DNA of 64,000 nucleotides from an uncultured Alphaproteobacteria bacterium (lineage in GTDB: Bacteria > Pseudomonadota > Alphaproteobacteria > Rhizobiales > Hyphomicrobiaceae), in NCBI GenBank assembly GCA_963819775.1, contig CAWFXM010000012.1, positions 391,319 through 455,318 on the forward strand. Reading direction: 5' to 3'. Numbering within the stretch: the first letter of the stretch is position 1; every line of letters starts with the position of its first letter. Of this stretch, positions 1-19,469 are shown piece by piece. A program made the position numbers and the translations under genes. The notes under the pieces are model-generated. The model saw nothing but the letters and a program-made list of their open reading frames with translations. It made no database searches and was not told where the DNA came from.

Positions 1-2740
1 GCCCGCCGCCGCGTTCACCGTCAGCGTCGTGTCTTCGGCGGTCGATCCCGTCTCGTCGTCCGCCACCGGCGCGTCGTTGACGGCGGTGACCGCGATGGTC
101 AGCGTGCCGGTGTCGGTGCCGCCGTTGCCGTCGGCGACGGTGTAGGTCGCAACGGGAACAGCGCCGTTGAAGTTCGCCGCCGGGACGAACGTGTACGTGC
201 CGTCGGCAAAGATGGTCAGATCGCCGGATGCGAGGTTCGCCGTGACGCCCGCCGCATACGTCGTGCCGCCGACCACGAACTGCGTGACCGCGAGCGCATC
301 GCCGTCGAGATCGGTGTCGCCGACGAGCAGCCCGGCCGCCGCATTCACCGTCAGCGTCGTGTCTTCGGCGGTCGATCCGGTCTCGTCGTCCGCCACCGGC
401 GCGTCGTTGACCGCGGTGACCGCGATGGTCAGCGTGCCGGTGTCGCTGCCGCCGTTGCCGTCGCTGACGGTGTAGGTCGCAACGGGAACCGCGCCGTTGA
501 AGTTCGCCGCCGGGACGAACGTATACGCTGCCGTCGCCGATGATGGTCAGATCGCCGGATGCGAGGTTCGCGGTGGCGCCCGCCGCATACGTCGTGCCGC
601 CGACCACGAACTGCGTCACCGAGAGCGCATCGCCGTCGAGATCGCGTATCGCCGACCAGCAAGCCCGCCGCCGCATTCACCGTCAGCGTCGTGTCTTCCG
701 CCGTCGATCCCGTCTCGTCGTCCGCCACCGGCGCGTCGTTGACCGCGGTGACCGCAATGGTCAGCGTGCCGGTGTCGGTGCCGCCGTTGCCGTCGGCGAC
801 GGTGTAGGTCGCGACCGGAACCGCGCCGTTGAAGTTCGCAGCCGGGACGAACGTGTAGCGAGCCATCGCCGAAGATGGTCAGATCGCCGGCTGCGAGGTT
901 GGCCGTGACGCCCGCCGCATACGTCGTGCCGCCGACCACGAACTGCGTCACCGACTGAGCGCATCGCCGTCGAGATCGCTATCGCCGACGAGCAAGCCCG
1001 CCGCCGCGTTCACCGTCAGCGTCGTGTCTTCGGCGGTCGATCCCGTCTCGTCGTCCGCCACCGGCGCGTCGTTGACGGCGGTGACCGCGATCGTCAGCGT
1101 GCCGGTGTCGCTGCCGCCGTTGCCGTCGCTCACGGTGTAGGTCGCGACCGGCACCGCGCCGTTGAAGTTCGCCGCCGGGACGAACGTGTACGAGCCATCG
1201 CCGATGATGGTCAGATCGCCGGCTGCGAGGTTCGCGGTGGCGCCCGCCGCATACGTCGTGCCGCCGACCACGAACTGCGTCACGCTGAGCGCATCGCCGT
1301 CGAGATCGGTATCGCCGACGAGCAAGCCCGCCGCCGCATTCACCGTCAGCGTCGTGTCTTCGGCGGTCGATCCCGTCTCGTCGTCCGCCACCGGCGCGTC
1401 GTTGACCGCGGTGACCGCGATGGTCAGCGTGCCGGTGTCGCTGCCGCCGTTGCCGTCGGCGACGGTGTAGGTCGCGACGGGAACAGCGCCGTTGAAGTTC
1501 GCCGCCGGGACGAACGTGTACGGCCGTCGCCGTTGATGGTCAGATCGCCGGCTGCGAGGTTCGCGGTGGCGCCCGCCGCATACGTCGTGCCGCCGACCAC
1601 GAACTGCGTCACGCTGAGCGCATCGCCGTCGAGATCGGTATCGCCGACGAGCAGGCCCGCCGCCGCGTTCACCGTCAGCGTCGTGTCTTCCGCCGTCGAG
1701 CCCGTCTCGTCGTCCGCCACCGGCGCGTCGTTGACCGCGGTGACCGCGATGGTCAGCGTGCCGGTGTCGCTGCCGCCGTTGCCGTCGGCGACGGTGTAGG
1801 TCGCGACGGGAACCGCGCCGTTGAAGTTCGCCGCCGGGACGAACGTATAGCTGCCATCGCCGATGATGGTCAGATCGCCCGATGCGAGGTTCGCGGTGGC
1901 GCCCGCCGCATACGTCGTGCCGCCGACCACGAACTGGGTCACCTGAAGCGCATCGCCGTCGAGATCGGTATCGCCGACGAGCAGGCCCGCCGCCGCGTTC
2001 ACCGTCAGCGTCGCGTCTTCCGCGGTCGATCCCGTCTCGTCGTCCGCCACCGGCGCGTCGTTGACCGCGGTGACCGCGATGGTCAGCGTGCCGGTGTCGG
2101 TGCCGCCGTTGCCGTCGGCGACGGTGTAGGTCGCGACGGGAACAGCGCCGTTGAAGTTCGCCGCCGGGACGAACGTGTACGAGCCATCGGCGAAGATGGT
2201 CAGATCGCCCGCTGCGAGGTTCGCGGTGGCGCCCGCCGCATACGTCGTGCCGCCGACCACGAACTGCGTGACCGACAGCGCATCGCCGTCGAGATCGGTA
2301 TCGCCGACCAGCAAGCCCGCCGCCGCATTCACCGTCAGCGTCGCGTCTTCCGCCGTCGATCCCGTCTCGTCGTCCGCCACCGGCGCGTCGTTGACCGCGG
2401 TGACTGCGATCGTCAGCGTGCCGGTGTCGCTGCCGCCGTTGCCGTCGGCGACGGTGTAGGTCGCGACCGGCACCGCGCCGTTGAAGTTCGAGCCGGGACG
2501 AACGTGTACGAGCCATCGCCATTGATGGTCAGATCGCCGGCTGCGAGGTTCGCGGTGGCGCCCGCCGCATACGTCGTGCCGCCGACCACGAACTGCGTCA
2601 CGCTGAGCGCATCGCCGTCGAGATCGGTATCGCCGACCAGCAAGCCCGCCGCCGCATTACCGTCAGCGTCGTGTCTTCCGCCGTCGATCCCGTCTCGTCG
2701 TCCGCCACCGGCGCGTCGTTGACCGCGGTGACGTTGAACG
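1..2740. repeat. Tandem ~330-bp coding repeat, at least 8 copies, near-identical at DNA level
   Basis: The landmark gttgaagttcgccgccgggacgaacgt (minor variants) recurs at ~167, 497, 828, 1162, 1491, 1822, 2151 and 2481. The unit encodes [109 protein letters not shown]. Confidence 0.9.
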
Positions 2741-5700
2741 TGATGGTATTCGGCGTCTGGTCGGTATCCTGGCCGCTGTTCGCCGTTCCGCCATCGTCCC
2801 GGACCTGGAACGTGAAGCTCGAGAGCGGGGTCCCGCTGGCGTTGGGCGCCGGCGTGAACACGAGCCACCCCAAGGCGATGTCCGCCGCGCTGACCGTCTG
2901 GCCGGCGATCACCGCCGCGCCGTTGTTCGTCAGCGTGCCGTTCGCCGGCAACGTCGTGATGATCACGGAATGGAAAGCGTCGGGCACGATCTCGTAGGCA
3001 TCGCTGAAGCCGAAATCGGCTGCCGAGAACGCGTAGACGACATCCTCGCCGATGGTGATGGCCTTGTCGGTACCCGCCGGCGCATTGTTGTTGTTGTCTC
3101 GGAAGAGAAGATCCTGCGCCATCGGAACGGCGTTGGAGCCCGAGGCGTTCAGGCGCGGATCACCGAGGAGATTGAGGGTCGTGGCGGTCCGATTTTCGTC
3201 GTTGGCATCGAAGCCGTCGTTGGCATTGGAGCCTTCGAAGATGTCGAGCAGGCCGTCACTGTCGGTATCGGCCGTCGACGTGATGGACGTGGGCTGGCCG
3301 TCGCCGCGCTCGCCAATGTCGGCGACACCGTCGTTGTCGCTATCGGCATCGAGATAATCGGCGGCATCGGCGCCATCGGTGTTGACCGGCGTCAGGCCGT
3401 TCGAGCCGGACGCGCCCGTGGACGGCGTCGCGTCGTAGGCGTTATCGAGTCCATCGAGGTCGGTGTCGGAGCCCGACGGCGCGACGTAGCCCGCGGTCGT
3501 CTGCGCCTCGACATTGTCGGTGATGCCGTCGTTGTCCGAGTCGATATCGACGCGGTTGACGATCCCGTCTCCATCGGTATCGACATCCTGGTAGGTCTGC
3601 AATGCGTAGGTGATCGGCAGCGTCGTGAAGCACGAACCGCGTGACCTGATCCAGCGGACGCCGACGACGTCGGTGCCGAAGACCAGGAACGTGCTCGTCG
3701 GCGTATCGAACGTGAAGGTGGCGCGGTAATTGTCCTGCTGCGTTCGATTGGGGTTGAGGATGACCGGGCTTACAGCGCCTTGCGCGCGAAGATCGGCAAA
3801 GCTGACCGTTTCTCCGGTGGCGGTCGTCGCCGCTGCCTCACCTGCGGCGTTGTTCGAGTAGGCGACCAGGAAATCGGTACCGTTCGCATTGGTCAGATTG
3901 CTCCACGTGCCGGCGACGTTCAGCGCCAGGGCGTCGACGTAACTGGGTCTGATCGAAGTCGTCGAGATCGAGGAACTGAAGCCCATTGATCAGCACGGTG
4001 CCGGCTGGCGACGTTGCGGTGATGCGCACGGACTCCGCGGTCCCGGAGCTGCGTCAGTGGTGACGGTGCTGCCCGAGATGGTCGCCCCGAGATTGTTGGA
4101 GATCGTCACAGTGACGGTGCCATCGGTCAGGATGATCGACAGGCTGGCCGTTGACCTGCGGGGCGGCTGCCGAGGCCGCGGCGTCATAGGTCAGCGAGGA
4201 CGTGACGGTCGCGGATGTCACGAGTACTCTGCTCCTGCTGATCGACGATGCCGTCGTTGTCGTCGTCGATGTCGGTCTGATCGATCACGCTGTCGGCATC
4301 CGAATCGAGCGAGACCGCGATCGCGGACGTCACTGCTGTCGAGTTGCTCGAGCCGTCGTTGACGACGACGCTGACAAGTCGGGTCGCGTTCACGGTCGAC
4401 ATGCGACGAGAACCCGATCTGCTCGATCGCGGCCTCGTAACTCGCCTTCGAGGCGACGCCCGTCAACGTCAGCACGCCGGTCGCCGAGTTATAGCTCGAA
4501 GCCGCGATGCCGGCCGGCAGGCTGCCACCGATGATGCTGAGCAGGTCGCCCGACTGGTGGTTGGTCAGGGTGATCGTCGCCGACGAGACGTTGGTGCTAT
4601 CGGCATCGATGATCCCGACGTTGGTGCTGGCGACCGCCACCGGCGCGGCATTCGTGACGTAGCTCGTCGTGTAGCTCGGCGCGTTGGTCGTGATCGAGAT
4701 ATCGTCGAAGTAGACGAAGTCGCCGTTGCCGAGATTGTTCGACGTCACGAAGCGGATGGTCGTTCCGCTCGCAATGTAGGCCGAAATATCCAGCGACAGG
4801 GACTGATATGCGGCATCGTTCGTCGGTCCGGCGATACGGCCGATCTCGGTGAATGTGCCGCCGGCCGACGTGGACGCCTGGATGGCCACATAGTCGTTGG
4901 CGTCATCGAGCGCGGCGCGCCGGTACGACAGGTTCAATGTGGCCGTCGTCGCTGCCGTCAGATTGGTAGTGCGGGCGACCTGAAGACCATCGTCGCCCAT
5001 CCGCAGGGAAATGTCGCCGATGTCGGTCACAAGTGCCGCGTCGCCGGCCGCCGCGCCACCCGTCGTGCTGACCTGCCACGCGCCGGTCCACCCGGTGCCA
5101 CCGGTCAAGTTGTTCGACTGGAAGTCGTCCGTCGCGCCGCCGTTCGCCGGCAGGCTGGCCGTGTTCAGATCGATCGTCGGCGGGGCCAGCAAGCCCATCC
5201 AGTCCGTCGCCGAAATCGACGTCGCCGCGATGTCGCCGAGTTCGGTCTCCAGATCCCAGTCGCCGCCCAGATCCGCGTGCCCCGTCGCGTCCGTCGATGC
5301 GGCGATATCCGCGCCGGTGATCGAGCCGAGCAGAATGGCGGCCTCGAGCCCGTCATCGCCGCCGGTGAAGTCACAGCCGTAAAGCAGAATATCGCCATTC
5401 GCCGAAAGCGCCTGGCCGATGGCGGTCAACTCGTCGAGATGCTGACCCTGCATCGAGGCGGCGTCGAGCACAGCCGTGCCCAGAAAGAGCCGGCCCTGCT
5501 GGCCATGCGACACGATGTGGATGGCGTCGAGATCGCTGCGGCCCTCGACGGCGGCGGCGATCTGCTCGACGCCGTCGCGGTTGGGATCGAGAAGCACCAC
5601 TTCCGCGCCATCCGGAATGGACGCCGAAATCTGGTCCGTATCGGTGACGGCGCTGTCGATGAACACGATGATGCGCGATTGGCCCGCCGCACTCGGCTCC

Positions 5701-6005
5701 AGCGCAGCCGTCATGAGGTCGTCCATGCCGGCTTCGGCCGCCGCTGCCGGCTCGATTGCGGCTGCCGCATCGTCGGCGGGCGCCGTGCTCGCTGCCGTGT
5801 CGGCCGCCGTATCATCCGCCGGAGGGGCGGCCTTCGCGGTGTCGTTGATGTCGGTCACGGTCGCGGCCATTGCGCCGTCGAAGGCGATGCGGGCCTCGAG
5901 TGCGCGATAGGCGATGGATGAACGCAGCATATCGGTCGCCGCTGCGGATCCGGCCTTGACGGGCTTTTCCGGGGCAAATGCGGACGGACGCAGGATCTTG
6001 TTCAT
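1..6005 (-). CDS. Giant repeat adhesin-like protein with its 3' end beyond the window. It has an N-terminal DUF4347-like domain, a lectin-like domain, Asp-rich Ca-binding-type repeats and at least 8 tandem 110-aa cadherin/VCBS-like repeats. The frame is broken at least 7 times.
   Basis: Minus-strand ORF pieces join into one protein if single-base shifts are allowed: 4218-6005 (MNKILRP..., with block [20 protein letters not shown]), 4184-4402, 3990-4187, 2598-3986 ([23 protein letters not shown] type repeats), 1424-2473, 948-2522 and 429-866. An AT-rich upstream region lies at 6006-6260. Confidence 0.7.
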
Positions 6006-6437
6006 CTTGATGATCTCATCCCGACAGAATACGGAGCTGGGCTAAACACCCAACTCGAGCTATGAGCAATTTGGTCTTTCTCTATTTCTAAAGCGTCAAT
6101 TGCAGCGCCCGGATTGTATTGTTTCGGGAGAAAATCAACGTTTCAATGGCAGCAAATCTATTAATGGTCGCATGGGTTATGGGGCTGCCGTTACCATTTC
6201 GAAACATTCGCAGCCAGAAACGCCGCCGATTAATTGTCGCGCTCTCTCCATTCCTGATGCGTGAAATCGCGGTCAAATCCCGGCCATGCGGGTCCGCCGC
6301 GGCGTCCGGACGGCCCTCCGGCAAAGGCCCTGCTCGAAGATTTGATCGCGTTGGCCCGGACCTTGCTTTTGCCGGAATTGCGGGCGCACGCTGAGGTTGT
6401 GATGCGCCTCACGCGTATCACAGGAGTACATCCAGTC

Positions 6438-6839
6438 ATGCTTGGAGCGGCTTTGTCTCTCGGCGTCCTCGCGGCGGCGTCGTTTACCGATTATCCCGCG
6501 TTCGTTCGTCCGGGCGTGCGCGTCGAAGCCGTCGTCGATCGCGGCCCGATCCGGGAATTGATCGTGCGCTGCCGAAACGGAACCGGCATTCTGTCCTATT
6601 CGAAGATCGAACGGACGTACTGCACGCCGGATTGGCGTTGCGCGCCAGGAACTCGACAGGGCGATCAGCCGCCTTTGCCGCTGAGGCGGCAGGTGCAAGT
6701 ACAATATCCGATCGGACGCCATCGCAGCGACGATCGACCGATCGGATGGAATTGCTTGGGAGCTACTTGTCGAGAGCCTCTTTATCGGACGGGCTTATCG
6801 CGATTGCATTTCCGTCATGTCCGACAACAAGTCCGGTGA
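6438..6839 (+). CDS. Hypothetical small exported protein (weak call)
   Basis: An internal ATG of ORF 6261-6839 is preceded by aggag at 6422-6426. The N-terminus MLGAALSLGVLAAASF is signal-like, but the C-terminal half is Arg-rich and may be out of frame. Confidence 0.2.
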   Translation: MLGAALSLGVLAAASFTDYPAFVRPGVRVEAVVDRGPIRELIVRCRNGTGILSYSKIERTYCTPDWRCAPGTRQGDQPPLPLRRQVQVQYPIGRHRSDDRPIGWNCLGATCREPLYRTGLSRLHFRHVRQQVR

Positions 6840-6869
6840 CGTGCGGGATCGAATTCAGCTTCGGCCGTT

Positions 6870-9047
6870 TCAGATGCCGCTCTCGCGGACCAGCACCTTC
6901 AGCGTCTGCCGCCACATGCGCTCCAGCAGGCTTTCCGGCCGGCCATCGAGGTGGATGACCCCGCGCTCGGACTTGTGCAGCGGCGCCGCCTCGTCGGTGA
7001 CGTCGAACACGGTCAGATAGCTGGCCGCCAGCGGTACGAGCTGCCTGGGTCCGTGCGCTTCTGCTTTCGGCCTGACCGCCAGCGGACCGCCGTGCTGCGA
7101 GGCCAGCTCCGCGATCTCGATCGTCGCCGAGGCCGAACTGGCCACGCTGGCGAGCTTCAGTTGCCGGCGGGCCAGCTGCGGGTCGTCGGGCGCGAACCAT
7201 CCGCCGTCACTCTTCACACCGCCAGTCGTGCCCCCGGTGCCATCCAACCGCGCCAGATCATGCTCCGACAGATAGCCGCGCGCGATCAGTGTGCCGCCGC
7301 CGCGGATCAGCGCGATCGGCTCGGCGCGTCCAATCGTGCGGCCCGGCTGCACCTCGAGATTGAGCTCCGCCACATCGCCCGCAATCGGGGTCCGCACCAC
7401 CAGCTCGGCGCGTTCCGCTTCGAGCCCCGCGAGCTGGCTGCGTAACGCCGCGCGCTCGCGCTCCAGCGACAGGCTGGCCGTCCGGTCCTGCTCGTCCGTT
7501 CCGCGCCGCGCCAGCCGCAACTCGACCAGCGCCAGCCGCCGCGACGCCAGCGTGATCCGGTGGACCAGCTCGGGCGAGCGCAAGGTGACGATCGGGTCGC
7601 CCGCGCCGACTTCCTGGCCCTGCCGGACATGCACCTCGGCCACCTCGGCCGGCCGCGGCGGAAACAGCCGCGTCAGCGATTTCGCCTCGACGATCGCCGG
7701 CAATTCGATCCGCGTCGACCACGGCACACTCGCGACCAGCAGCAGCGCCAGTGTCGCGCCGGCTGTCGTCCAGGCCCGCCGCCGCGTCCTGATCACCGCG
7801 CCCTGCCGCCACCACGTCCGCACTTCCGTCGCCGCCGGCCACAGCACGAAGTAGACGATCTCGACCAGAAACAGCGCAATGCCGAGCACCTTGAATGCGA
7901 GGTGATAGACCATCAACGCGATGCCGGTGAACAGCACCAGCCGGTACAGCCACACGGCCCATGCGTACCCGGCGAGGAAGCGCCGCGTGTTCCGCGGCAG
8001 CGGCTCCGGTGGCGGTGCGCCGAGACCGAACAGCACCTCGCGCATCCGCCACTTGCCGAACTCGAAGGCGCGGCTCTGCAGATTATCGATGCCGGCCATA
8101 TCCGACAGCAGATAGTAGCCGTCGAACCGCATCAGCGGATTGAGGTTCACCGCCAGACTGAGCACCCAGCCGACGGTGGCGATGGTGAACGCCACGCTAC
8201 GCAGAATGCCATCGGGCAGAAAGGCCCACAGCGCGGTGGCGATGCACGCCAGCGCCAGCTCGACCAGCATGCCCGCCGCGTCGATGGCGATCCGCTGCCG
8301 CCGCGATCTGAGCCGCCAGGCGTCGGTCACGTCCGTATACAACATCGGCATCAGCACCATCAGCGCGACGCCCATCGACGGCACCCGGCAGCCATAGCGC
8401 GTCGCCGTGTAGGCGTGGCCGAGCTCGTGCAGGCTCTTCACGACGATGAGCGCGAGGCCATAGATCACGGCCCCCTCCCACGAGAACAGGTGCAGGAACG
8501 TGCTCGTGAACGCATCCCACTGGCGCGAGACCAGATACAGCCCGGCGAGCCCCGTCGCCGCGATCGCCAGCCAGAACCCGCGCGTGAAGAACACCGCCGT
8601 CAGCGGCGCGGTGCGATCGAGGAACCGCTGCGGCTTGAACAGCGGCATCTTGACATAGAGGTAGTTGTGGATCGCCCACTTGATCCAGCCGTGGTCCTGC
8701 GCGCGGGCCACGTCCGCATAGGGCTTCCAGCCACCGAGCCGCGGCTCGACGGTCAACCGGTTGGCTTCGAGAAACTGCGCGAGATCTTCGATCTGGCCCT
8801 TGTCGACGGCCAGCCCGAAGCGTTCCGACACCGCCTGCGCCAGCGCCTCGCCGGTCATCTCCGGCGACCACATCGACAACACCTGGAAGGCGGTGCCGTC
8901 GATCTGAATATAGCGGTTCGACACCGGGTCGATCACCAGCCACGTCGGCGCGCCCGTCGCCGTGTCGGCGCCGCGTTCCAGCCGCAGCTCCTGTCGCAGC
9001 TCGGGGAGGGGCTTCGGCTCGGCGGGTTTCATCACAAGCCCGCCCAT
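6870..9047 (-). CDS. Site-2 protease (M50) family membrane metalloprotease fused to a C-terminal HlyD-like adaptor domain, with a possible PqqD-like N-terminal peptide-binding domain
   Basis: 725-aa ORF with an HELGH zinc motif inside a multi-TM region. The C-terminal half has HlyD-like coiled-coil/barrel segments (GDPIVTLRSPEL..., PIAGDVAELN). An alternative start at 9032 overlaps the upstream stop by 1 nt. Confidence 0.8.
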   Translation of the reverse strand: MGGLVMKPAEPKPLPELRQELRLERGADTATGAPTWLVIDPVSNRYIQIDGTAFQVLSMWSPEMTGEALAQAVSERFGLAVDKGQIEDLAQFLEANRLTVEPRLGGWKPYADVARAQDHGWIKWAIHNYLYVKMPLFKPQRFLDRTAPLTAVFFTRGFWLAIAATGLAGLYLVSRQWDAFTSTFLHLFSWEGAVIYGLALIVVKSLHELGHAYTATRYGCRVPSMGVALMVLMPMLYTDVTDAWRLRSRRQRIAIDAAGMLVELALACIATALWAFLPDGILRSVAFTIATVGWVLSLAVNLNPLMRFDGYYLLSDMAGIDNLQSRAFEFGKWRMREVLFGLGAPPPEPLPRNTRRFLAGYAWAVWLYRLVLFTGIALMVYHLAFKVLGIALFLVEIVYFVLWPAATEVRTWWRQGAVIRTRRRAWTTAGATLALLLVASVPWSTRIELPAIVEAKSLTRLFPPRPAEVAEVHVRQGQEVGAGDPIVTLRSPELVHRITLASRRLALVELRLARRGTDEQDRTASLSLERERAALRSQLAGLEAERAELVVRTPIAGDVAELNLEVQPGRTIGRAEPIALIRGGGTLIARGYLSEHDLARLDGTGGTTGGVKSDGGWFAPDDPQLARRQLKLASVASSASATIEIAELASQHGGPLAVRPKAEAHGPRQLVPLAASYLTVFDVTDEAAPLHKSERGVIHLDGRPESLLERMWRQTLKVLVRESGI

Positions 9048-10569
9048 TTCCGCGCCGCCGCGATAGGCCGGCGGAACAGGAAGAACCCGAGCGGCACGTC
9101 GTCGCCCGAAATCTGCGCCGTGCCGCGCACGCCCAGGCGCGGGGGCGGGCGGTTGCCGCTGGCCAACGTCGCGATGACGCGGAACGCGGCCACGTCGCCT
9201 TCGCCCGGCCGCGCCTTGTAGTCCGAACGGTCGATCTTACCGGCGAACGGCCGCAAGGGATCTGAATCGAGGAACGCCATGACGCGCGCGCCGGGCGTCA
9301 GCGCGATGGCATCCGCCACCGGCAGCTCGATCTTGAGTTCGATGGCCGCCGGATCGGCGATCTCCATGATGCGCTCGCCGACCGCCACCGGCTTGCCGGT
9401 CAGCTCACGCTTGTCGGCGAACACCGCGATGCCGCTGCGGGTGGCGCGCACCGCCGATTGCTCGAGCATGTCGCGCGCGTAGTTGCGTTCCGCCATCTTC
9501 AGCGCCAGTTCGGCGCGGGCGATGCCGAGCTCGTGCAGACCACGCGCGTCGGAAAACGCCATCTGCGTCGATTGCTTCAGCCGCGCGTCGGCCACCGTCA
9601 CCTCGCGCTCGGCGATTTCGAGGCGGTTCTTCAGCGTCGTGTCCGCCAGCCTCAACAGCACGTCGCCGGCCTTGACCGGCTGGTTCGGCTCCACGGCGAC
9701 GGTTTCGATCACGCCGTCGATCGGCGTTGCGACGACCAGCGCGCCGCGCGCGACGACCTCGGCCGGCGCCAGTGCGGTCAACGGCACCGGCACCAGCGCG
9801 AGCGCGCCCAGCACCACCGCCGTCGCCGCCGCATGCCGTTTCGACCATCGCTGCCAAGGTCGCGCCAGCTTGGGCGCCGCCAGCGCCGACCATGCGTGCG
9901 CATAGGCCCCGGCCAGCCGCTTGCCGACCACCAGATCCTGCTCGATCCACGCCGTCTCACGCGCGACCACCACCGCGCCGAGCATCGTGCCAGAGCGATG
10001 CCGCAGCGGCAGCGCGATGAGCGCGCGGAACGGATAGGCGGCGCCCGGGCCGCCACCCCCGTTGCTGTGCCCGCCGTCGTCCCCGGACTGCGGGTCGAGC
10101 GTCACCGCATCCGCCGCTTCGCCGGTCGCCAGTGCGGCGTTGACCATCGCTTCGATCCAGCCGACCAGCGGCGCGGTGCGATCGACGGCGGCGAGGCTCG
10201 ATACCGCCGTCACCTGCATCGCGCCCGGCCGGCCGGCCAGCACGAACACCTGGCGGGAGCGGACCAGCTTGCGCGTTTCGTTGGCGATCAAGTAGGCGAG
10301 ATCGCGCTCGCTCGCTGCCGCGCGCACCTCGGCTTCCACCCTGAGCAGCGCCACGAGGCCGGATTGCGCGTCCGCCGCGGCGACGGCCGGCCGTGCCGGT
10401 GCCGACGCCGACGCCGTTGACGCGGCCGCGCTTGCCTCTGGACTTGCCGCGGGGTTGGCCGCTGCCGCGTTGGCATTCGTCCGGTTTGGCCCGCCGCCGC
10501 CGCGTCCGTGGCGGGTCGCGGCGCCTGCGCACCTGTCGGCTTGCGAATGCGGCTGCTGATCACCGTCAT
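9032..10569 (-). CDS. HlyD-family periplasmic adaptor with a cytoplasmic GAF-like N-terminal domain; probable frameshift near 10490
   Basis: The C-terminal 300 aa of ORF 9032-11107 are HlyD-like (ATPIDGVIETVAVEPNQPVKAGDVLLRLAD...). An ATG at 10569 (ORF 10288-10569, MTVISSRIRKP) sits 7 nt after the upstream stop but in another frame. The span is 3n+2. Confidence 0.65.
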
Positions 10570-10575
10570 GGCGGG

Positions 10576-11361
10576 TTATCCGTTGGCCGGCTTGAAAAAC
10601 GCCGAGCCGCTCATCCCGGGCAGGATCTCGTCGGCGTCGCGCGTCTTCACGGCGATCACCTTGATCATCTGGCTGACCGGATCGACGGTTGCGGCGAGGC
10701 GCGACAGGGTCATCGGGTAGCTGCGCCCGGTTTCGTCGATGGCGAAGGTGAAGGCGTCGCCGGTCTTCAGCCACGTCAGCCACGACGACGGCACGATCAG
10801 CTCGATCTCGAGCCGGTCGGCGCCGACGATAGACAGGAACGGCTTGCCGGGGCCGGGCACTTCGTGCGCCTGCACGCCGAGCAAGGCGACGCGGCCGTCG
10901 AACGGCGCAACGACGACGCACTGGTCGAGCCGGGCCTTCAGCGCTTCGGCTTCCGCCGCGGCTTTGGCCACGCGGGCCTTCGAAATTTCCACGTCGTGGC
11001 GGCCGATGGCCTGATGCTTTTCGAGGAGTTTGTTGCTGTCGAGCGTCAGCTGCATCTCGCGATGCACCGCCTCGGCGCTGGCCGCTTCGGCGCGCGGCTT
11101 GCGGCAATCGAACTCGATCAGCGGCTGGCCGGCCTTGAAGCGCTCGCCCTCGCGAAAGTGAACCGACGTCACGCGGGCGCCGAGATCGGTCGAAAACGCC
11201 GCCTGATCGACAGCCCGCACCACGCCGCGGATCGGGATGGCATCGCCGTCCTGGCGCGTGTCTCCAGCCACCACCGGATTGCTCCCGGTCGCCGCCACGG
11301 CCCAGATGATCGTGCCCAGCAGTCCTGAACCCAGAACGCGGGTAATAGGTGAGGTACGCAT
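10576..11361 (-). CDS. HlyD/RND-type periplasmic adaptor (short form)
   Basis: 261-aa ORF with an N-terminal signal anchor, a lipoyl-like hairpin (IRGVVRAVDQAAFSTDLGARVTSVHFREGERFKAGQPLIEFD ... VVAPFDGRVA) and a coiled coil between its halves. Confidence 0.75.
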   Translation of the reverse strand: MRTSPITRVLGSGLLGTIIWAVAATGSNPVVAGDTRQDGDAIPIRGVVRAVDQAAFSTDLGARVTSVHFREGERFKAGQPLIEFDCRKPRAEAASAEAVHREMQLTLDSNKLLEKHQAIGRHDVEISKARVAKAAAEAEALKARLDQCVVVAPFDGRVALLGVQAHEVPGPGKPFLSIVGADRLEIELIVPSSWLTWLKTGDAFTFAIDETGRSYPMTLSRLAATVDPVSQMIKVIAVKTRDADEILPGMSGSAFFKPANG

Positions 11362-11684
11362 GTCACTCGTCCGAACCGGTCACGCCAGAGCCGACAACGG
11401 CTCCGGCAAAGCGCAGTATTCGGATAAAATGGCTTATGGAGCGTTAAGAGATTACAAGACAATTGACGTACCAAGTCACGGAATTCACGCCGTTTCTCTA
11501 CACGTCACTCGAGCATGATCGTTTGCGATGGAATCGCACCGCGATCCCATCTCAAACGTGAATCATGCTCTAATTCATAGCGTAGGAGTGCGATTCACGA
11601 TCTTGATTGTCGCGCCCCGCGCTTCAATCAAGAACGATCGCACTCCATGCGGCCCCCAGGCCAAGGTGACCCTCACGGTGGCCC

Positions 11685-13208
11685 TCACGGTGCCGCCGCC
11701 ATCCGCTTGTTCCAGCCGGCGCTGATGTCGCCACGCTCGAGCCACAGATCGCGCAGTTGCGCCGAAAGATCCGAGACGCTCTGGTCGCGATCGATCTCCC
11801 AGGCATAAGGGTCGAGGCCCATCGACGAGAACAGGTTGGCGTAGGCGTTCTGCAGCGTTGCATAGGCGATGTCGTGCTTGGCCTCGGCGACGAGCGTGTT
11901 CATCTCCTCGCGGATCAGCGTCTGCTTGCTGACCCGGTCGGCGGCCGCCTCGGCCCGCATCTGCCCGACCAGCCGCGACTGCACGTCGAGGAATTCGACC
12001 GACGTCGCCAGCTCCTTCTTGGAGTGCAGGAAGCGGACGCGGCTGACGTGGACCTGCGTCATGACGGCCATGGTCAGCGCCAGTCCTCGCGTCTTGAGCA
12101 GGTCCTCCTGCCGCTCCACCACCTTGCGGCGGGCGGGATAGTTGAACACCTTGATCAGGTTCCAACTGGCCTTGGCGCCCCAGTTCACCCACTCGTTGTG
12201 CAGCAGGAATTCGTTGCTGTCGTAGTTCGTGCCCGCATACATCTGCAGGCCCGGCAGCAATTCGAGCAGCGCTGCGTCGGCCTCGTGCTCGTTGATCCGC
12301 ACCCGATACTGCAGCTCGCGCAGCTCCGGCCGGTTGTAGATCGCCGTGGACATCATGTCCTTCAGATCGGCCTGCAGCTCGAGCTTGCCGTCCTTGCGCG
12401 CTTCCGCCGCCAGCTTGAACGGCGTGCCGGGGGCAATGTTCATCAGCGCGGCCAGCTGCGCCTTCGCCGTGTTCAGCTCGCGCTGGATCTCGCCGATCTT
12501 GACCTTGATCTCGACCAGCTCGCGCTCATACGTCAGCGCGGTGATCGGCGAGGTCTGCTTGCTCTTATAGAGTGCGCGAGTCTCCTGCAGTGCCGATCGC
12601 GTCTCGCCTTCCAGCTTGCCCAGCCGCTGCATCAGACGTTCGGCGCTGATCGTCCGCCAATAGGCGCTGCGCACGTCCTCGACGATGCGATGCATCACCT
12701 TGCGGCGCATTTCCTCCTGCACCAGCACCTTGTCGGCGGACTGGCGGGCGCGCACCAGCGACAGGCCGAAGTCGAGCATATTCCAGGTGAAGCCGATGTC
12801 GGCGACCGAGATCTTGCGCTCCTGCGAGGTCGAGTCGGCGAAATTCTGCGTGTTGGTGGTCAGATTGTAGCTCGACGCGGCGTTGTCGTTGTCACGGGCC
12901 GCATAGCCGCTGTTGACCACGGCGTTGGGCAGCAAACTGAAATGCGCCAGATCGAGCTCGCGCAGGCGCAGCGATTGCTCGGCGATTTCGACGCGATGAT
13001 CGAGATTGTATTTCAGCGCCCGCGCCATCGCCTCGTAGAGGTCGATCGCGCCGCCGATCGCTTCCTGGTCCGCCGTCACCTGCTGCTGATGCGTCGTCGA
13101 GGCCACGGTCAGGGCTTCGGTGGTCAGCGGCTGCGGCTTCACCACGCAGCCGGCCAGCAGCAGCGCCGCCGTCGATATCGACAAATGTCTCCGGAGTTTC
13201 GGCAGCAT
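11685..13208 (-). CDS. TolC-family outer-membrane efflux lipoprotein
   Basis: ORF 11685-13298. The internal start MLPKLRRHLSISTAALLLAGC carries a lipobox. The sequence is TolC-like throughout (LYEAMARALKYNLDHRV..., two repeated halves). Confidence 0.8.
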   Translation of the reverse strand: MLPKLRRHLSISTAALLLAGCVVKPQPLTTEALTVASTTHQQQVTADQEAIGGAIDLYEAMARALKYNLDHRVEIAEQSLRLRELDLAHFSLLPNAVVNSGYAARDNDNAASSYNLTTNTQNFADSTSQERKISVADIGFTWNMLDFGLSLVRARQSADKVLVQEEMRRKVMHRIVEDVRSAYWRTISAERLMQRLGKLEGETRSALQETRALYKSKQTSPITALTYERELVEIKVKIGEIQRELNTAKAQLAALMNIAPGTPFKLAAEARKDGKLELQADLKDMMSTAIYNRPELRELQYRVRINEHEADAALLELLPGLQMYAGTNYDSNEFLLHNEWVNWGAKASWNLIKVFNYPARRKVVERQEDLLKTRGLALTMAVMTQVHVSRVRFLHSKKELATSVEFLDVQSRLVGQMRAEAAADRVSKQTLIREEMNTLVAEAKHDIAYATLQNAYANLFSSMGLDPYAWEIDRDQSVSDLSAQLRDLWLERGDISAGWNKRMAAAP

Positions 13209-14033
13209 AGCTCGCCTGCTTTGGTGTTGAGGCAACACAAAACGCGACAAGCACAAATTCGGGGATGTGGCAGCCCGTCGGGCCGATTCTGCGAGCACAA
13301 TTCCAGTCTAAGACAACGACTTGACCGGCTCTCACTCACTGCGTGCGTACGCAATCCGACGAGGCCCATCGACAAGCTTCAAATCACGACCCTGGTGTTG
13401 TCGCAGGTCCGAAGTGGCGGAAACACGCAGGTTTCAGAAACACATCTACTTCCCTGATCCGGCATTCGAATCACTCAGCAGACGTATGAGATGCTGCTCA
13501 ACAAACATTAACCGGTCGTTACCTTTATCTGGTCGGCGATCCTGCCGTTGCCGCCGTCGCTGCCTGCCATGTTTCGGGCCATCCTCCGCCGCGTTGCCGC
13601 GCCACCTCGACGTTAAGAAAAATAGTGCGACCTAGACTTAACTCCGACGCGCGTGGGTTGCAGTCGCCGAACCGTTCGGCGATAGTGACGCAGTAAGTTT
13701 TCGATGTTCATTTTCACGCGCCATCGCAATCAGACGTTGATCATATTGATCATAATGCGTGGGATGCGAGCCAACTCGAGGCGCAACAAGCCGGTCGGAC
13801 TTCGTTGCAGTGCATGCGGGCGGTACGGGGCAGGGGCGGGTTCAGCAAGGGGAGGTTGTATTCGGGGCGTCGGTGAAGGGCCGTCCCGAATATAGTTGCC
13901 GAAGAAATAGTTGCCGAAGCAGAGGCGTCGTCGCCCGGCCGTTCGCCGGTCGGCCAGCTTGTCGTGTCCAGTCTCCTGTCGTGTCCAATCTATCGCGTGT
14001 GACCAGCCCTTCGCGTGTGAGTAGCGTTCCGGA

Positions 14034-16868
14034 ATGTTCAAAGCACCGAATACCCGACCCGACGTGGACCCGGCGCCCGAAGCCGGAACCCCGTATGCCG
14101 CCACCGCTCCGCGGCCCATCGCGCGCCTCGTCCCGCACTCGGGCATCCAGATCATCGATCTCGAGTTGCCGGCGACCGTGCTGGCGCAGGTGCTGCACTC
14201 CTTCGCCGAGCATCGCTACGCCACGGGCGGCAGCTTCCGCACCATCCTGATGCCGCTCGACCGCGCCGGCAGCGGCGACGTCGTCTGGCACCCGGTCTCC
14301 CACCGCGCGCTCGCGCCCGACGAAATCATGTCGATCTCCGGTCAGTCCGCCATCGATTCGTTCGCCGGCCGCTGGGTGCCGCTGCCCTATCTGCGCTTTC
14401 TCGGACGCGACGAGGCGGGCCAACCGTCGTTCGATGCCGGCCCCGAGAACTGGGCGCGCGTGTTCATCGCGGCACCGTCGCCATCCGGCGGCAATTCGTC
14501 CGGCGGCGACGCCGGCGACGCGGCGGTCTACCGTCTGGCGCTCGCCTTCGACACCCGTCTCGACGCGGCCGATCGCAGTGGCGAACGCCGCTATCTCGCG
14601 CCCAATTCCGACGACGCCTTGCTCGGCGCGTCGTTCAAGCTGGCGACCGGCGCGGGCGATCTCGCGCGCTTCGCCAGCCGGCCGTGGATCGACGGCTGGC
14701 TGCGACAGGGCCTCGATGCCTACCGCGCGCGGCCCGGCGGTGGCGGATCGCGGTCGCCGTTCGAACTCGAGCACGTCGCCCGCTATCTGGTCCTGGCCGA
14801 GGTCTTGGGCCGCTACTGCGCGATGCCGGAGATCCGCTTCCTCGATACGCTGAGCAAGCGGTGGCCGGTGCCCATCACCGGCGTCGATCTCGTGCTCGAC
14901 ATGACCGCCTCCGATACCGCCGCCCTGCTGGTCGATCGCGATACCGGCGACGGCGGCGCGCCGCTGGCGTCCGCCGCCCCTCTGGCGCTCCGCGACTTGA
15001 CCAACCCCACTGCCCAGTTCTCAGGGCCGATCCCGACCCAGGTCGAGTTCGCTCTGCCGCCCTTTGGTGATGCCGGCCTGTCGCGCCGCAGTGGCCGTCC
15101 CGATGCCTTCCTCTGGCCGAGCCTCGCCCGCGTCGGGCAGGAGGCGGTCGCGCTGTCGCTCCGCGCCACGGCGACTGTGGGCGTCACCGGTCAATCCGAC
15201 TTGCCCGCACTGATGACCGAGACCGGTGCAGCCGACGACATCTGGCGAATAGGCGTCGATGGCGCCGGCGGCGGCATCGGCCCGGTCGTGTCGGGCGCCT
15301 TGCTCGCCCATGTCGCCGAGGACGGCACCCCGTTGTCCGCCGCCGATGCCGGGCGCGCGCCTGCCGTCCGGCCGCGCTTCGCGCTGTCGTCGCTGATGAC
15401 GTTCTTCCTGGCCGAGCTGCTGCTCCACGCCATCGCCGCCGTCAATGCCGTCGCCACCGCCGAAGATCCGCGCCGCCCCACCGGCGTGCGGCAGTTGCGC
15501 CGCATCGTCGTCACCGTCGCCGCCGGCATGCCGTACGACGAGCGCGCCGGCACCCTCGCCCACGTCGACCGGGCCATCGATCTGGTCTGGCGCGCCCTCG
15601 GCTGGGACGGAGCGCGGGAGATCGGCGCGCCGCCGCGACCCGAGACCAGCCTCGGCGCAGGCACCGAGCTGGCCAGCCAGCTCTATCAGTTCCGGCGTGA
15701 AATCGCGGCGCGCTACGGCAATGATTTCGGCCCGCTGATCGGCGCGCGCGACGGTGCCGACGGCGGCAGCGCGATGGTCGCCGTCCATGGTCCGCGCGGC
15801 CCCCATGTCGTCCGCGTCGCCAGCGTCGAGCTCGGCGGTCCGCTCACCGGCGCCATCGTCACCGACTACGCCGTCGCCGGCGATGGAATGCTGATGCCGC
15901 TGCAAGCCGTCACCGAGCGCTGGGCCGAGGGCGACACCGGCATCGGCGGCGCGATGGCCGAGCGGTTCATCCTCTCCGCCCTCACCACCGCGCTGGCCGA
16001 TCACGGCATCGGCGCGCCCGGCGTGTTCCTCTCCCGCACCCTCGACACCACCACGGCGCGGGCCAGCACCGAGCGCAATCTCGCCCGCCGCCTGCAGTCG
16101 AAAATCGTCCGCCCCGCCGCCGCAGCCCTGTTGCAGATCGCGCGCGAGTTGCCGCCGCGCATCGCCAGCGGGCAGCGCATCCAGTCGCTTCGCGGCCTCG
16201 TCGAGCGCGGCGGCGGACGCTTCGATCCCCATGCCGCCGAGTTCGACGCGCTGGCGCAGCGCGAGGGCGCGGCCGCATTCCGCCTCGACCGCGTCGAGAT
16301 CCGCTTCAGCCAGCGCCAGCTCGATCTGGCCATCCGCGCCGCCGCCGCCGAGGCGATCCGCCGCGCCGCCGATCTCGTCGCGCGTCAGCATTGCGATTTC
16401 GTCCTGATGTCGGGCAGTCTGACTGCAATCAGCGCCATCGCCGACGATGTCGTCGCCGCGCTCCCGCTCGAGCCCGGCCGCATCGTCATGCCCGCGCGCG
16501 GCGCCGAAGCCCGTGCGTCCGCCGAGCCCGGCGCCGGCCTCGCCGCGCTCACGCCCGTGCGGTTCGCCGGTCTCGCAGGCGCCTATCTCGCCGGCCGTGC
16601 CATGCCGGGCTTCGAAGCGTTCGACCGCGTGGTGCGCTCAATCGGCCGCGACGCGTCGACCTTGATGCCCGCGCCGCCGATGCTGTCGCTGCCCGGTGCC
16701 TCCGGCTCGAATTCGCCCGCGCCGGGAGCCGGCCTGGTGATCGACGTCCTGCCCCGCATGCTGTCGGCCTCGGCCGCGACAGCCACCAGCGCCACCGCCA
16801 CTGGCGAACGCGCCACCTTTGCCGAGCGCCCCACCCTTGCCGAGCGTGCCGGGAGCGTCGAGCCATGA
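14034..16868 (+). CDS. srfB: SrfB-like protein (virulence factor SrfB family)
   Basis: 944-aa ORF. The N-terminal blocks HSGIQIIDLELP and GRWVPLPYLRF...GPENWARVFI match my memory of SrfB family signatures. It is followed by an srfC-like gene with an ATGA overlap. Confidence 0.7.
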   Translation: MFKAPNTRPDVDPAPEAGTPYAATAPRPIARLVPHSGIQIIDLELPATVLAQVLHSFAEHRYATGGSFRTILMPLDRAGSGDVVWHPVSHRALAPDEIMSISGQSAIDSFAGRWVPLPYLRFLGRDEAGQPSFDAGPENWARVFIAAPSPSGGNSSGGDAGDAAVYRLALAFDTRLDAADRSGERRYLAPNSDDALLGASFKLATGAGDLARFASRPWIDGWLRQGLDAYRARPGGGGSRSPFELEHVARYLVLAEVLGRYCAMPEIRFLDTLSKRWPVPITGVDLVLDMTASDTAALLVDRDTGDGGAPLASAAPLALRDLTNPTAQFSGPIPTQVEFALPPFGDAGLSRRSGRPDAFLWPSLARVGQEAVALSLRATATVGVTGQSDLPALMTETGAADDIWRIGVDGAGGGIGPVVSGALLAHVAEDGTPLSAADAGRAPAVRPRFALSSLMTFFLAELLLHAIAAVNAVATAEDPRRPTGVRQLRRIVVTVAAGMPYDERAGTLAHVDRAIDLVWRALGWDGAREIGAPPRPETSLGAGTELASQLYQFRREIAARYGNDFGPLIGARDGADGGSAMVAVHGPRGPHVVRVASVELGGPLTGAIVTDYAVAGDGMLMPLQAVTERWAEGDTGIGGAMAERFILSALTTALADHGIGAPGVFLSRTLDTTTARASTERNLARRLQSKIVRPAAAALLQIARELPPRIASGQRIQSLRGLVERGGGRFDPHAAEFDALAQREGAAAFRLDRVEIRFSQRQLDLAIRAAAAEAIRRAADLVARQHCDFVLMSGSLTAISAIADDVVAALPLEPGRIVMPARGAEARASAEPGAGLAALTPVRFAGLAGAYLAGRAMPGFEAFDRVVRSIGRDASTLMPAPPMLSLPGASGSNSPAPGAGLVIDVLPRMLSASAATATSATATGERATFAERPTLAERAGSVEP

Positions 16869-19469
16869 CGCCAGCGCAACGCCTCACGCTGTCGGCCCGT
16901 CAGGCGGCCGAGCAGGCACAGCGGCTGCTGTCGTGGTTGCAGCACAGCAAGGACGACCGGCCGGAAATCGCCGGGCTCATCGACGAGATCGAAAGCATCT
17001 CCGGCGAGGTCGGGCGGGTCATCGACGCCATCGACACGCGGCCGACCATCGGCATCGCCGGCGGTTACGACTCGGGCAAAACCGCGCTGCTCGCCGCCCT
17101 GTCCGGCTCCGCCGATCAGCCGTTGCGCGCCGAATTCTCCAACCGCGAGGCCAGCCTCGACGTGCTCTCCAGCGTGCTGCCCAATCGCGGCGGCGCGCGA
17201 TCGTCGGCTGCCGTGCGCCTGTCGAAGCAGGATCTGCCCGCCGCGCCGCGCGGGTTTCCGGTGCGCGTCCGCATCCTCGGTCAGCTCGATCTGATCAAGC
17301 TCGTATTCCGCGCGCACGCCAGTCACATCGGCGCCGCCGCTGGTCAGGCGCCGTCGGCCCGCGCCGTCGCCAATCTGTTCACCGAGGCCGAGCGGCAGCT
17401 GCAGCCGCGCGCCGTGGCGGGCTTGTCCGCCCGCGATATCGTCGAGCTGCGCGAGGACGTGCATGGCTTCGATCCCTATTCGCCGTTGCTGCGCGTGCTC
17501 GCCGCCGCCGGCTACTGGGATCGCCTCGCGCTGACCGTCGCCCATCTGCCCGAAGTCGAGCGCACGCGGCTCGTCGCGCTGCTGTGGAACGAGGAGCCGG
17601 TCCTCACCGCCATCTATTCCGTGCTCAACAGCGCCATCGACAAGCTCGGCCACGCCACCGAGGTGTTCTGCGAGCTCGGCGCCATCGTCACGCGGGAGCC
17701 GGCCACCGGCTGGATGGTGCCGCATCGCGCCAGCATCGTCGCCGCCGACACGCTGGCCGGCCTCGCTCATGCGCTGGGCGCTGTGCCGGCCTCGACGGTG
17801 CAGGTTTCGGGCCGCTTCGGCGGTTCCATCGCGCTCGACCGCGCGGTGATGGCGACGCTCGCGGCCGAGCTGCCGTTGACCTTGCAGAGCGCGCCCATCG
17901 CCGGGCTCGCCGAAACCGACGTGGTCACGTTCCCTGGCGCGCCGCCGGTCGTCGAACTGGTCCGCTCCGATCCCGCTGCAGCGCTCGCCGCCGGCGGCGA
18001 GGTCCGTGGCGGCCTCGGCGTCGAGGCGGCGGTGTCGATCCTCGCCCAGGCCAAGAGCGTGTTCCTGCTCGAACGCGCCGCCCGCCGCCATCAGCTGGCG
18101 AGCCTCGTCGTCTGCCTCGATCCGGCCGAGCCGCCCGACGACGTGCTCGCCAGCGCCATCGGCGACTGGATCGCCACCGAGCAGGGCGTCGAGCCGCATC
18201 ACCGCGAGCGCGTCCGCACCGGCCTGTTCGTCGTCGTCACCCGCCCGCTCGGCGGCGGCGATAGCGTCAGCCGGGTCGAGCCGTGGCGTGCCGCCGCCGC
18301 AGACGACGCGGTCGTCCGCTCGGTGTCCGAAGGCATCGGCGTCGATCAGGACTGGCCGGGCGAATGGACGCCCAACCACCACTTCGACAACTACTTTGCG
18401 TTCCACCGGGCGGTGCGCGGGTCGGGCGCGCGAACCGGCGAAACCCAGCTCCGCCTCGTCAACGGCTCGGCCGCGAACACGGCCCCGGCGTCCAGCGGTG
18501 CCGACAGCCTCGTCCGCGCCCTCGCGGTGGTCGCCGTTCGCGTCAAGCGGCAACGCCTGCTCGGCCTGCATCTCGGCGGGCTGCGGCGGCGGCTGCGGTC
18601 GCGCGTGCTCCGCCATCATCTGTCGAACGATCCGATGGAAATCGCCGAATGGCGGCGTCAGGTCGCCAACGTCGCCGTCAATCGCCTGCGCCGTCCGATG
18701 CCGGGCGCACGATCAGGCAGTGTCAGCGCGGGCACGCTCGTCGCCGCATTGTCCGTCTCCGACGCCGAGCTGGCCGCCGCCATCGACACATCGCTGCGTT
18801 CGGATGTGCGTTCGGATGAGCGTTCTGGCCTTCGATCCGGACCCGCGCGCCGCCGCCGATGCCGCCACGGCCTTCGAAAATCCATCGTTCGGCCATGACT
18901 CCGCCGCAGCCGCCGTCGCCTATTGGTTGCGGGCCATGCGTCAGTCTGGACGCTCTGCCCGGTTCTGCCGGCACTTGGGGGTACCGCAAACCGTGTTGCA
19001 ACATGTGATCGACGAGCTGGCGATCGGCGCCGTTCGCACGGGTGTCGTCGCCGAGACGACAGCCGCCTTCGCCCGCTTGCCGCCGGCCATGTCGTCGTCG
19101 CCCGCCGCGCCCGTTCACCTTGCTGCTACCCCCGTTCACCTTGCTGCTACCGCAGTGCGGATCATCGAGGCCTACCTTGCTAGTATCCCCCGGACGGTCG
19201 CCGATCCTGCTGTCCGCGCGGGGCCGTCGCCGTCTCACGACGTCGTGCCGTCCCCGGCTGCCGGCCGGCACGTCGATGCCGCCGGTCCGCACCGCGCGCA
19301 ATCCCGCGCCGGTGCCTTCGGTGGTCCCGCCTGGACCAGCGCCGTCGCCGCACTGGTCGAAGCCAATATCGCGGCGGTCTCGGGTTTGGTCGATGCGGCG
19401 GAACGCGATCGGGAGCTCGGTGAATTGTTGACGGGATTCGCCTCCAGTCCATTCGAGGTCGAGCTGTGA
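16865..19469 (+). CDS. srfC: SrfC-like P-loop protein (putative bacterial virulence factor family); frame change near 18820
   Basis: The start MTPAQRLTLSARQ at 16865 overlaps the srfB stop. It has a P-loop IGIAGGYDSGKTALLAAL. ORF 16391-18898 continues in ORF 18006-19469 (..AFDPDPRAAADAATAFENPSFG..AYWLRAMRQSG..). The span is 3n+1. Confidence 0.65.

Follow-up and report, generated by a model that had tools for sequence, protein, structure and literature searches.

A candidate five-gene module linking a leader-bearing giant protein to an adaptor-fused intramembrane protease

The sequence analysed here, called the window below, is a stretch of 64,000 nucleotides from an uncultured Alphaproteobacteria bacterium of the family Hyphomicrobiaceae (GenBank assembly GCA_963819775.1, contig CAWFXM010000012.1, positions 391,319 to 455,318 of the forward strand). 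All coordinates are positions within this window, and features lie on the minus strand unless stated otherwise. It contains a cassette of four genes, coding for a TolC-like outer-membrane lipoprotein, a short HlyD-type adaptor, a second HlyD-type adaptor with a GAF-like domain (GAF-HlyD) and a protein in which a PqqD-like domain, an M50 protease and an adaptor are fused (M50-HlyD). Together with a giant gene located downstream, these four genes probably form one conserved module. We consider it somewhat probable (roughly 0.6) that this five-gene module acts on a giant adhesin-like protein of the cell surface, processing it and bringing about its export or display; cleavage and export are what we infer from gene order and conserved motifs. 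An original prediction, made from the DNA letters alone, had proposed coupled cleavage and export of an unknown substrate by the four-gene cassette. The idea fits the conserved architecture and the absence of a pump, but the substrate appears to be the adjacent giant protein and not an unknown small peptide. The same prediction had seen no convincing precursor gene nearby and in this it was wrong, as 865 nt downstream of the M50-HlyD gene, at position 6005, the same strand carries the start of a giant DUF4347 gene.

Gene order and conservation of the module

The four cassette genes are co-directional, as originally described, all of them on the minus strand, and the last three are tightly packed, with a gap of 6 nt between the short HlyD and the GAF-HlyD genes and an overlap of 1-16 nt between the GAF-HlyD and the M50-HlyD genes. 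The TolC gene is set apart from the other three by 323 nt. Promoter and terminator scans gave site counts no higher than in shuffled sequences and do not settle co-transcription, and an Rfam scan of 5800-14200 produced a single match at chance level.

At E<=1e-30 the M50-HlyD fusion has a large and uniform family of 3662 clusters (50% identity), in which the 150 top-scoring members all align collinearly and measure about 700-720 aa. Relatives were found in at least 594 species genomes, including Hyphomicrobium, Rhizobiaceae, Methylobacterium, Azospirillum, Nitrospira, Halomonas, Pseudomonas and others. Among 83 non-duplicate loci, 57 preserve the arrangement TolC, short HlyD, GAF-HlyD and M50-HlyD; they come from Alpha-, Beta- and Gammaproteobacteria, Nitrospira and other groups, and the loci without this canonical order are mostly on short contigs. 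When only informative loci are considered (those with at least 5.5 kb on both flanks, n=36), an open frame of at least 1000 aa is found within 2.5 kb of the cassette in 31. The exceptions comprise a fragmented giant gene, a giant located one gene further, two shorter leader proteins (see below), a 788-aa repeat protein and a degenerate cassette. Gene calls from three unrelated contexts identify the fifth gene as a DUF4347/cadherin giant of more than 4000 to more than 5000 aa. This gene is located either downstream of the M50-HlyD gene, as in the window, or upstream of the TolC gene, and on either strand. Reduced versions were also seen: in two loci (L057 and L078) the GAF-HlyD and M50-HlyD genes come immediately after the giant gene, and the TolC and short HlyD genes were not detected in the 20-kb locus, a hint that GAF-HlyD and M50-HlyD are the core of the system.

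The M50-HlyD gene is also present, at 99% identity or more, in 24 of 5426 complete genomes of Escherichia coli, mostly on plasmids. In one 69-kb E. coli plasmid the five genes are bracketed by the insertion sequences (ISs) ISKpn26 and IS1B, and this plasmid carriage indicates that the module moves as a unit. The E. coli plasmid locus L093 (NZ_CP081687.1; 8006-9388 and 43149-43319) has a diguanylate cyclase gene elsewhere on the plasmid and a fragment of an EAL-domain gene just upstream of the IS bordering the giant gene, which could be a remnant of cyclic di-GMP control or a coincidence.

The names given to these proteins in RefSeq are generic ("HlyD family efflux transporter periplasmic adaptor subunit", "site-2 protease family protein", "Ig-like domain-containing protein"), and we found no description of the module in the full-text literature, subscription-only papers being outside the search.

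The giant partner gene, its leader and its passengers

The part of the giant gene contained in the window (1-6005, extending past the window start) codes for a leader, a DUF4347 domain, a choice-of-anchor-like region and tandem cadherin-like/Big_9 repeats; profile matches identify the repeats (Cadherin_4/5 and Big_9) and DUF4347 (PF14252, at 8.8e-49). The leader motif, from L36 to T49 (5859-5900), is found 35 residues after the start and is common to the partners. Its short consensus is LExRxxFD[AG]AxxAT, and the long form reads [S][LY][RL][AS]-L-E-[PSQ]-R-[ILV]-[AMV]-F-D-[AG]-A-A-[AV]-A-T; a low-complexity linker and the DUF4347 domain come after it. We have found this leader at the N terminus of 40 distinct giant proteins encoded beside cassettes, 30-40 residues after the start. 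Leader and DUF4347 are both kept where the giant gene sits upstream of the cassette (a plasmid of Azospirillum argentinense and an IncF plasmid of E. coli), and the partner in Halomonas (L036) has the leader, with no DUF4347 found by tblastn. On the other hand, the cyanobacterial DUF4347 giants, which carry RTX repeats, lack both the leader and a nearby cassette, so that the leader seems to be the element tied to the cassette. The NCBIfam LEPR-XLL model gave no match at E<=10 to the two leaders compared with it; motifs of the LEPRxLFSA and LESRLLLSA types occur in the DUF4347 alignment.

The regions behind DUF4347, the passengers, are different among the partners and include cadherin types, Big_9, VWA, the LapA domain, beta-helix and Laminin_G_3. 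No RTX repeats (HemolysinCabind) were found in six complete partner proteins, which may still have a bare C-terminal signal. This combination of a conserved N terminus and variable cargo looks like a targeting module. In a Nitrospira locus (L046) the cassette is followed by two genes (13352-15634 and 16212-20516), both with leader and DUF4347, which suggests that one machine may serve several substrates.

The DUF4347 domain of the window protein (residues 113-264, 5214-5669; 165.8 bits) is predicted to have a caspase-like fold, also that of the cysteine protease domains (CPDs) of toxins. It has a putative catalytic dyad formed by H167 (5505-5507) and C211 (5373-5375), and H167, G168 and C211 are invariant in 62 sequences. 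The model built from these 62 sequences had a predicted local distance difference test score (pLDDT) above 90 for residues 111-270. When compared by Foldseek, its best match was Tce1 of Pseudomonas aeruginosa (PA0256; 9qpe_G, E 4e-6), followed by caspases 3, 6 and 7 and CED-3. A profile alignment places H167 and C211 on His186 and Cys240 of Tce1, the residues that the authors of the Tce1 structure equated with the two catalytic residues of the TcdB CPD, the proteolytic activity of Tce1 itself being only proposed (PMC13323088). We regard DUF4347 as a putative cysteine-protease-like domain of the clan CD kind, for self-processing or anchoring. In one further locus (L087, 10001-20723) transposase genes have inserted between a DUF4347 gene and a cadherin-repeat giant, and the 10 kb upstream contain no cassette; this looks like an IS-disrupted partner gene.

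Between the M50-HlyD and the giant genes of the window there is a small open reading frame (ORF) of about 80 aa on the plus strand (6438-6684), with an N-terminal hydrophobic segment and four cysteines. It is 89% identical to a called gene of the related locus L001 and is also found in L004/L005, L007, L009 and L012, and not in more distant loci; in the window its last 11 codons are in another frame.

The protease-adaptor fusion and the other cassette proteins

The fusion protein (6870-9047, 725 aa; the start may also be at 9035 or 9032) had been described from the sequence as a site-2-protease core with a HELGH motif joined to an HlyD-like C terminus, and profiles and invariant residues agree with that description, as does the fold search for the C-terminal part. 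In its AlphaFold model (mean pLDDT 82.6), residues 22-95 form three strands and then three helices; about seven membrane helices follow, then an alpha-hairpin (residues 492-547), and the C-terminal domains are rich in beta structure. The membrane domain of site-2-protease type (7728-8630), with about seven transmembrane helices, contains HELGH at 8415-8429 and matches Peptidase_M50 (PF02163) over residues 198-288 with 33.2 bits, above the gathering cut-off of 27.2. Residues H207, E208, H211, N301, P304, D309 and G310 are invariant in 24 relatives, the last four within the stretch NLNPLMRFDG (residues 301-310), and the protease looks active on these grounds. The C-terminal part (6873-7718) appears to be a periplasmic adaptor domain, consisting of the alpha-hairpin, a lipoyl part and a beta-barrel part; it matches HlyD_3 (8.8e-08) and resembles MacA, AcrA, MexA and EmrA in the fold search (Foldseek E 2.4e-12 to 1e-8). 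When the whole model was searched adaptors dominated, and no site-2 protease or PqqD was among the top 50 matches.

The domain at the N terminus (residues 22-95, 8763-8984) is predicted to be cytoplasmic. The original prediction took residues ~30-95 for a PqqD-type domain, an assignment that the topology and the relatives back and that the window copy on its own does not reach, since the excised domain matches Pfam PqqD (PF05402) at 0.0035 with 18.1 bits, below the cut-off of 23.4. PqqD is the sole family matched repeatedly by this domain (12 of the 24 relatives, best 2.4e-4), and a protein of a sister clade (see below) scores 24.1 bits, above the cut-off. The RefSeq name of the sister-clade fusion is "PqqD family peptide modification chaperone". 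In profile searches against solved structures the only match was TfuB1, a recognition protein for lasso peptides, and it was weak (E 0.89). Taken together, the domain can be called PqqD-like with reason. Residues 40-401 align to the NCBIfam model daptide_HExxH (NF041824) at 9e-48 (163.2 bits, below the curated cut-off of 300), and the YydH/LiaK model (NF058609) was matched at 1.6e-08 (34.5 bits, below the curated cut-off of 225); the fusion protein is therefore not a member of either curated family.

Two of the remaining components agree with what had been proposed for them, and the OEP and HlyD_3 matches exceed the cut-offs of these profiles. The outer-membrane factor (11685-13208, 507 aa) is a TolC/NodT-like lipoprotein with two OEP repeats (3.4e-31, 108.9 bits) and the lipobox LLAGC, and is 81% identical over its full length to the L001 ortholog. 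The short periplasmic adaptor (10576-11361, 261 aa), with an N-terminal signal or anchor, matches HlyD_3 (1.7e-17) and RND_mfp (TIGR01730) with 102 bits, above the cut-off of 94.9.

The GAF-HlyD adaptor (9032-10569) has a predicted cytoplasmic N-terminal domain, one transmembrane segment and a periplasmic HlyD part (HlyD_3, 2.5e-15). The GAF-like nature suggested for its N-terminal half holds for the family better than for the window copy: the latter has no match to Pfam GAF, this model being matched by 6 of 24 orthologous N-terminal domains (best 5.4e-07) and by the sister-clade GAF-HlyD protein at 4.1e-10. Describing the domain as GAF-like is thus reasonable. The start at ATG 10569 was correctly placed in the original prediction, as the N terminus (MTVISSRIRKP) agrees with that of the L001 ortholog (80% identical), but the gene is not a single uninterrupted frame. 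The frame that begins at 10569 stops at 10288, and the one ending at 9032 takes over at about 10450-10480 by comparison with L001, so that in the window the gene is interrupted by a frameshift.

Absence of a pump and a SecA paralog in a sister clade

To our knowledge, all known TolC-dependent machines use an inner-membrane transporter of the ATP-binding cassette (ABC), resistance-nodulation-division (RND), major facilitator superfamily (MFS) or PET type. In the window no ABC, RND or MFS pump was found within about 10 kb upstream of the cassette. Of 85 loci only 5 showed an ABC signature, in each case in a separate protein of about 370 aa whose position varied from locus to locus. The genes following complete giant genes are unrelated to transport and include no ABC genes, and the full annotation of the 69-kb E. 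coli plasmid contains no ABC, RND, MFS or SecA gene.

The original statement that no transporter ATPase or pump is present holds for the surroundings of the window cassette and needs qualifying for the system as a whole. A sister clade of the fusion protein (27-30% identity to the window protein), from Rhodobacterales, Mesorhizobium, Aminobacter and Roseibium, has the gene order giant (8000-13000 aa), DUF3467, GAF-HlyD, PqqD-M50-HlyD, SecA paralog and short HlyD. The SecA paralog (about 660 aa; SecA_DEAD 1.3e-96, with the preprotein-binding domain) follows the M50-HlyD gene directly and was found in seven of eight sister-clade loci, which points to a motor of the SecA type. The giants of this clade are named "LEPR-XLL domain-containing protein" in two RefSeq records. 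Pfam-annotated gene calls were available for four sister-clade loci, and in three of these a radical SAM gene is located just downstream; the vicinity of a PqqD-like domain and a radical SAM enzyme suggests that the leader region of the giant might also be modified.

Some other genes of the sister clade were recorded. In L100, L101 and L103 the short HlyD gene is followed by a pair of unnamed genes, one of about 245-270 aa and one of about 292 aa, and by the radical SAM gene, with a SapC family gene next in L101 and L103. In a Pseudosulfitobacter plasmid (L098, NZ_CP085155.1) a SapC family protein and a 674-aa "prepilin peptidase" replace the SecA paralog, and the partner is a LEPR-XLL protein of 12,918 aa.

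A possible mechanism and its alternatives

If the module does process and export its giant partner, the PqqD-like domain would bind the leader in the cytoplasm and the M50 active site would remove it, as related leader peptidases of ribosomally synthesized and post-translationally modified peptides (RiPPs) and signal-peptide-cleaving site-2 proteases do. The unfolded chain would be driven across the inner membrane, N terminus first, by a SecA-type ATPase; this motor would be the dedicated paralog in the sister clade, and the housekeeping SecA would have to serve in the clade of the window. The adaptors and the TolC-like protein would connect into a closed duct, and the repeats would fold once at the cell surface. 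The GAF-like domain would provide cytoplasmic control, and DUF4347 may be self-cleaving, or may serve as an anchor or plug. Extended in this way, the proposal would amount to a new class of Gram-negative secretion, with a LEPR-type leader read by a PqqD-like domain, cleavage by an adaptor-fused M50 protease, a SecA-type motor and a duct made only of adaptors and TolC, without ABC, RND, MFS or PET transporter. To this wider formulation we would give slightly less than an even chance.

Several points weigh against the proposal. Within the module we have identified no protein-conducting channel of the inner membrane, and we know of no M50 protease acting as a protein conduit. The SecA paralog is absent in cis from the window and from 94 other loci (L001-L094), and that the housekeeping SecA takes part in this clade is conjecture. 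No clear hydrophobic core is seen in the leader. As for the synteny, only two of the 36 informative loci were inspected beyond 10 kb. The copy in the window is frameshifted in two genes, those of GAF-HlyD and the giant protein, and for this reason the module may be inactive or mis-assembled here. DUF4347 alone does not predict the module, as four DUF4347 loci that were checked had no cassette within 10 kb, and DUF4347 proteins are also found as type VI effectors (PMC13323088).

The chief alternative is a device for retention, release or quality control of a giant adhesin that is itself exported by the general Sec pathway or by an unlinked type I system. By analogy with the action of LapD and LapG on LapA, the leader and DUF4347 would hold the N terminus at the envelope, and the adhesin would be released or activated through a cut by the M50 protease, itself under control of the GAF-like domain. 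A protease associated with a cytoplasmic sensor-like domain suits regulated cleavage, and N-terminal folded domains are known to act as retention plugs in type I adhesins such as LapA and MpIBP. The missing channel would also be accounted for, and the cyanobacterial DUF4347 giants, with RTX repeats and no cassette nearby, go in the same direction. However, three adaptors and an outer-membrane factor would be costly equipment for cleavage alone. There is no ABC exporter nearby in 80 of the 85 loci or on the E. coli plasmid, and the partners lack RTX repeats. The SecA paralog inside the sister-clade operon argues for translocation as well. On balance we regard this possibility as unlikely, although it is the alternative that survives best.

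The other two explanations fit the synteny poorly. In one, the product matured and exported by the cassette would be a small ribosomal peptide with its precursor gene at another place, and the giant gene would be a neighbour for other reasons. The similarity of the PqqD-like and M50 parts to RiPP leader peptidases invites this idea, as do the radical SAM gene of the sister-clade operon and the small cysteine-rich ORF between the M50-HlyD and giant genes. But the daptide score is far under the curated cut-off (163 against 300), and the leader-like motif is on the giant protein itself. When we looked for a conserved small precursor beside the cassettes, only this ORF of about 80 aa was found, on the opposite strand and restricted to close Hyphomicrobium-like relatives, and in the clade of the window neither a conserved small precursor nor a tailoring gene adjoins the cassette. 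We consider such a peptide exporter quite improbable. Least credible of all is a role in small-molecule efflux or envelope maintenance, with a housekeeping protease domain and no link to the giant protein, for which the database names (all three proteins are called efflux adaptors) and the fold matches to efflux adaptors can be adduced, but which is at odds with the lack of a transporter partner, with a linkage to giant genes that is near-universal across phyla and in both gene orders, and with the conservation of the peptide-recognition domain and the leader motif.

Comparison with known systems

Processing and export of the giant partner, our preferred interpretation, has partial parallels in several known systems. 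The closest in layout are the type I systems for giant adhesins (LapA/LapBCE, SiiE/SiiCDF and MpIBP), in which an adaptor and a TolC-like factor are also encoded beside a giant repeat adhesin, and a one-step passage through a periplasmic duct would be plausible for the module too. The differences are substantial: the ABC transporter is missing, the conserved leader stands at the N terminus where type I substrates have RTX repeats and a signal at the C terminus, and the single adaptor of those systems is matched by three types, one of them joined to an intramembrane protease. No LapG or LapD genes were found in the annotated relatives. With no ABC transporter, no RTX signal found and a conserved signal located at the N terminus, the module falls outside the definition of type I secretion.

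Other likenesses concern the protease. Peptidase-containing ABC exporters of double-glycine leader peptides, such as CvaAB-TolC, follow the logic proposed here, with a protease within the export machine that recognizes and removes an N-terminal leader ending in small residues; there the enzyme is of the C39 type and not M50, and the module differs further in its PqqD-like recognition, in the lack of an ABC domain and in a cargo of thousands instead of tens of residues. The RiPP leader peptidases (daptide, NF041824; YydH/LiaK, NF058609) are homologous to the N-terminal 400 residues of the fusion, with a PqqD-like domain followed by the HExxH core, but the fusion scores below the cut-offs of these families, is joined to an adaptor and linked to a giant protein, and has no small precursor or tailoring genes in the clade of the window. 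The site-2 proteases of the RseP type share the catalytic motifs and the membrane core. Cleavage of N-terminal targeting peptides is a known activity of site-2 proteases, and RseP clears signal peptides. Unlike RseP, the fusion has no PDZ domains or known site-1 step, having instead a recognition domain and an adaptor.

The pairing of a motif with a membrane protease recalls GlyGly-CTERM/rhombosortase and PEP-CTERM/exosortase, where a short terminal motif on many, often large, surface proteins is tied to a membrane protease; in the module the motif is N-terminal and the enzyme is an adaptor-fused metalloprotease with a TolC-like partner. DUF4347 belongs to the same fold class as the CPDs of MARTX and TcdA/TcdB and as Tce1, with an aligned His/Cys pair, and is contained in a giant secreted protein as in MARTX, but it is located directly after the leader, at the N terminus of adhesin-like proteins. 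Finally, the sister clade resembles the accessory SecA2 systems in having a dedicated SecA paralog for a special set of substrates. This paralog, unlike SecA2, is short (about 660 aa) and encoded in an operon with adaptors and the M50 protease, and it is absent from the clade of the window. The module can be described as a variant of the adaptor/TolC machines that would deserve a class of its own if export were confirmed.

Giant repeat proteins with an N-terminal LEPR-type motif or DUF4347 are common in environmental, plant-associated and some clinical bacteria, and their export route is unexplained. If the interpretation is true, thousands of unexplained "LEPR-XLL" and DUF4347 giants would gain an export route. 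The replacement of the transporter by a leader-reading intramembrane protease (plus SecA in the sister clade) would widen the range of envelope-spanning machines, and leader recognition in the style of RiPPs would be linked to protein secretion. The IS-bracketed copy on an E. coli plasmid makes the question accessible to ordinary genetics.

Frame changes and neighbouring genes in the window

Compared with the orthologs, the window has at least ten frame changes in about 19 kb (at 1-6005, about 6650, 10450-10480 and about 18800). Most of them are in the giant gene, which has at least seven with respect to the L001 ortholog, and the GAF-HlyD gene and the small ORF have one each, as srfC probably does. 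The insertions and deletions are outside homopolymers, and the M50-HlyD, TolC, short HlyD and srfB genes are without frame changes. The frame changes could be due to unpolished long-read errors or to gene decay.

Divergent from the TolC gene, on the plus strand, are a SrfB gene (14034-16868, 1.5e-110) and a SrfC-like "Virul_Fac" gene (16391-19100, 2.2e-57), the match of the latter falling into two frames near 18750-18877. This pair adjoins the cassette in L001 too, and not in the other loci. The GC content, about 0.70 in the region, drops to 0.59-0.63 at 11001-14000 and 6001-7000, which correspond to the TolC gene and two intergenic regions.

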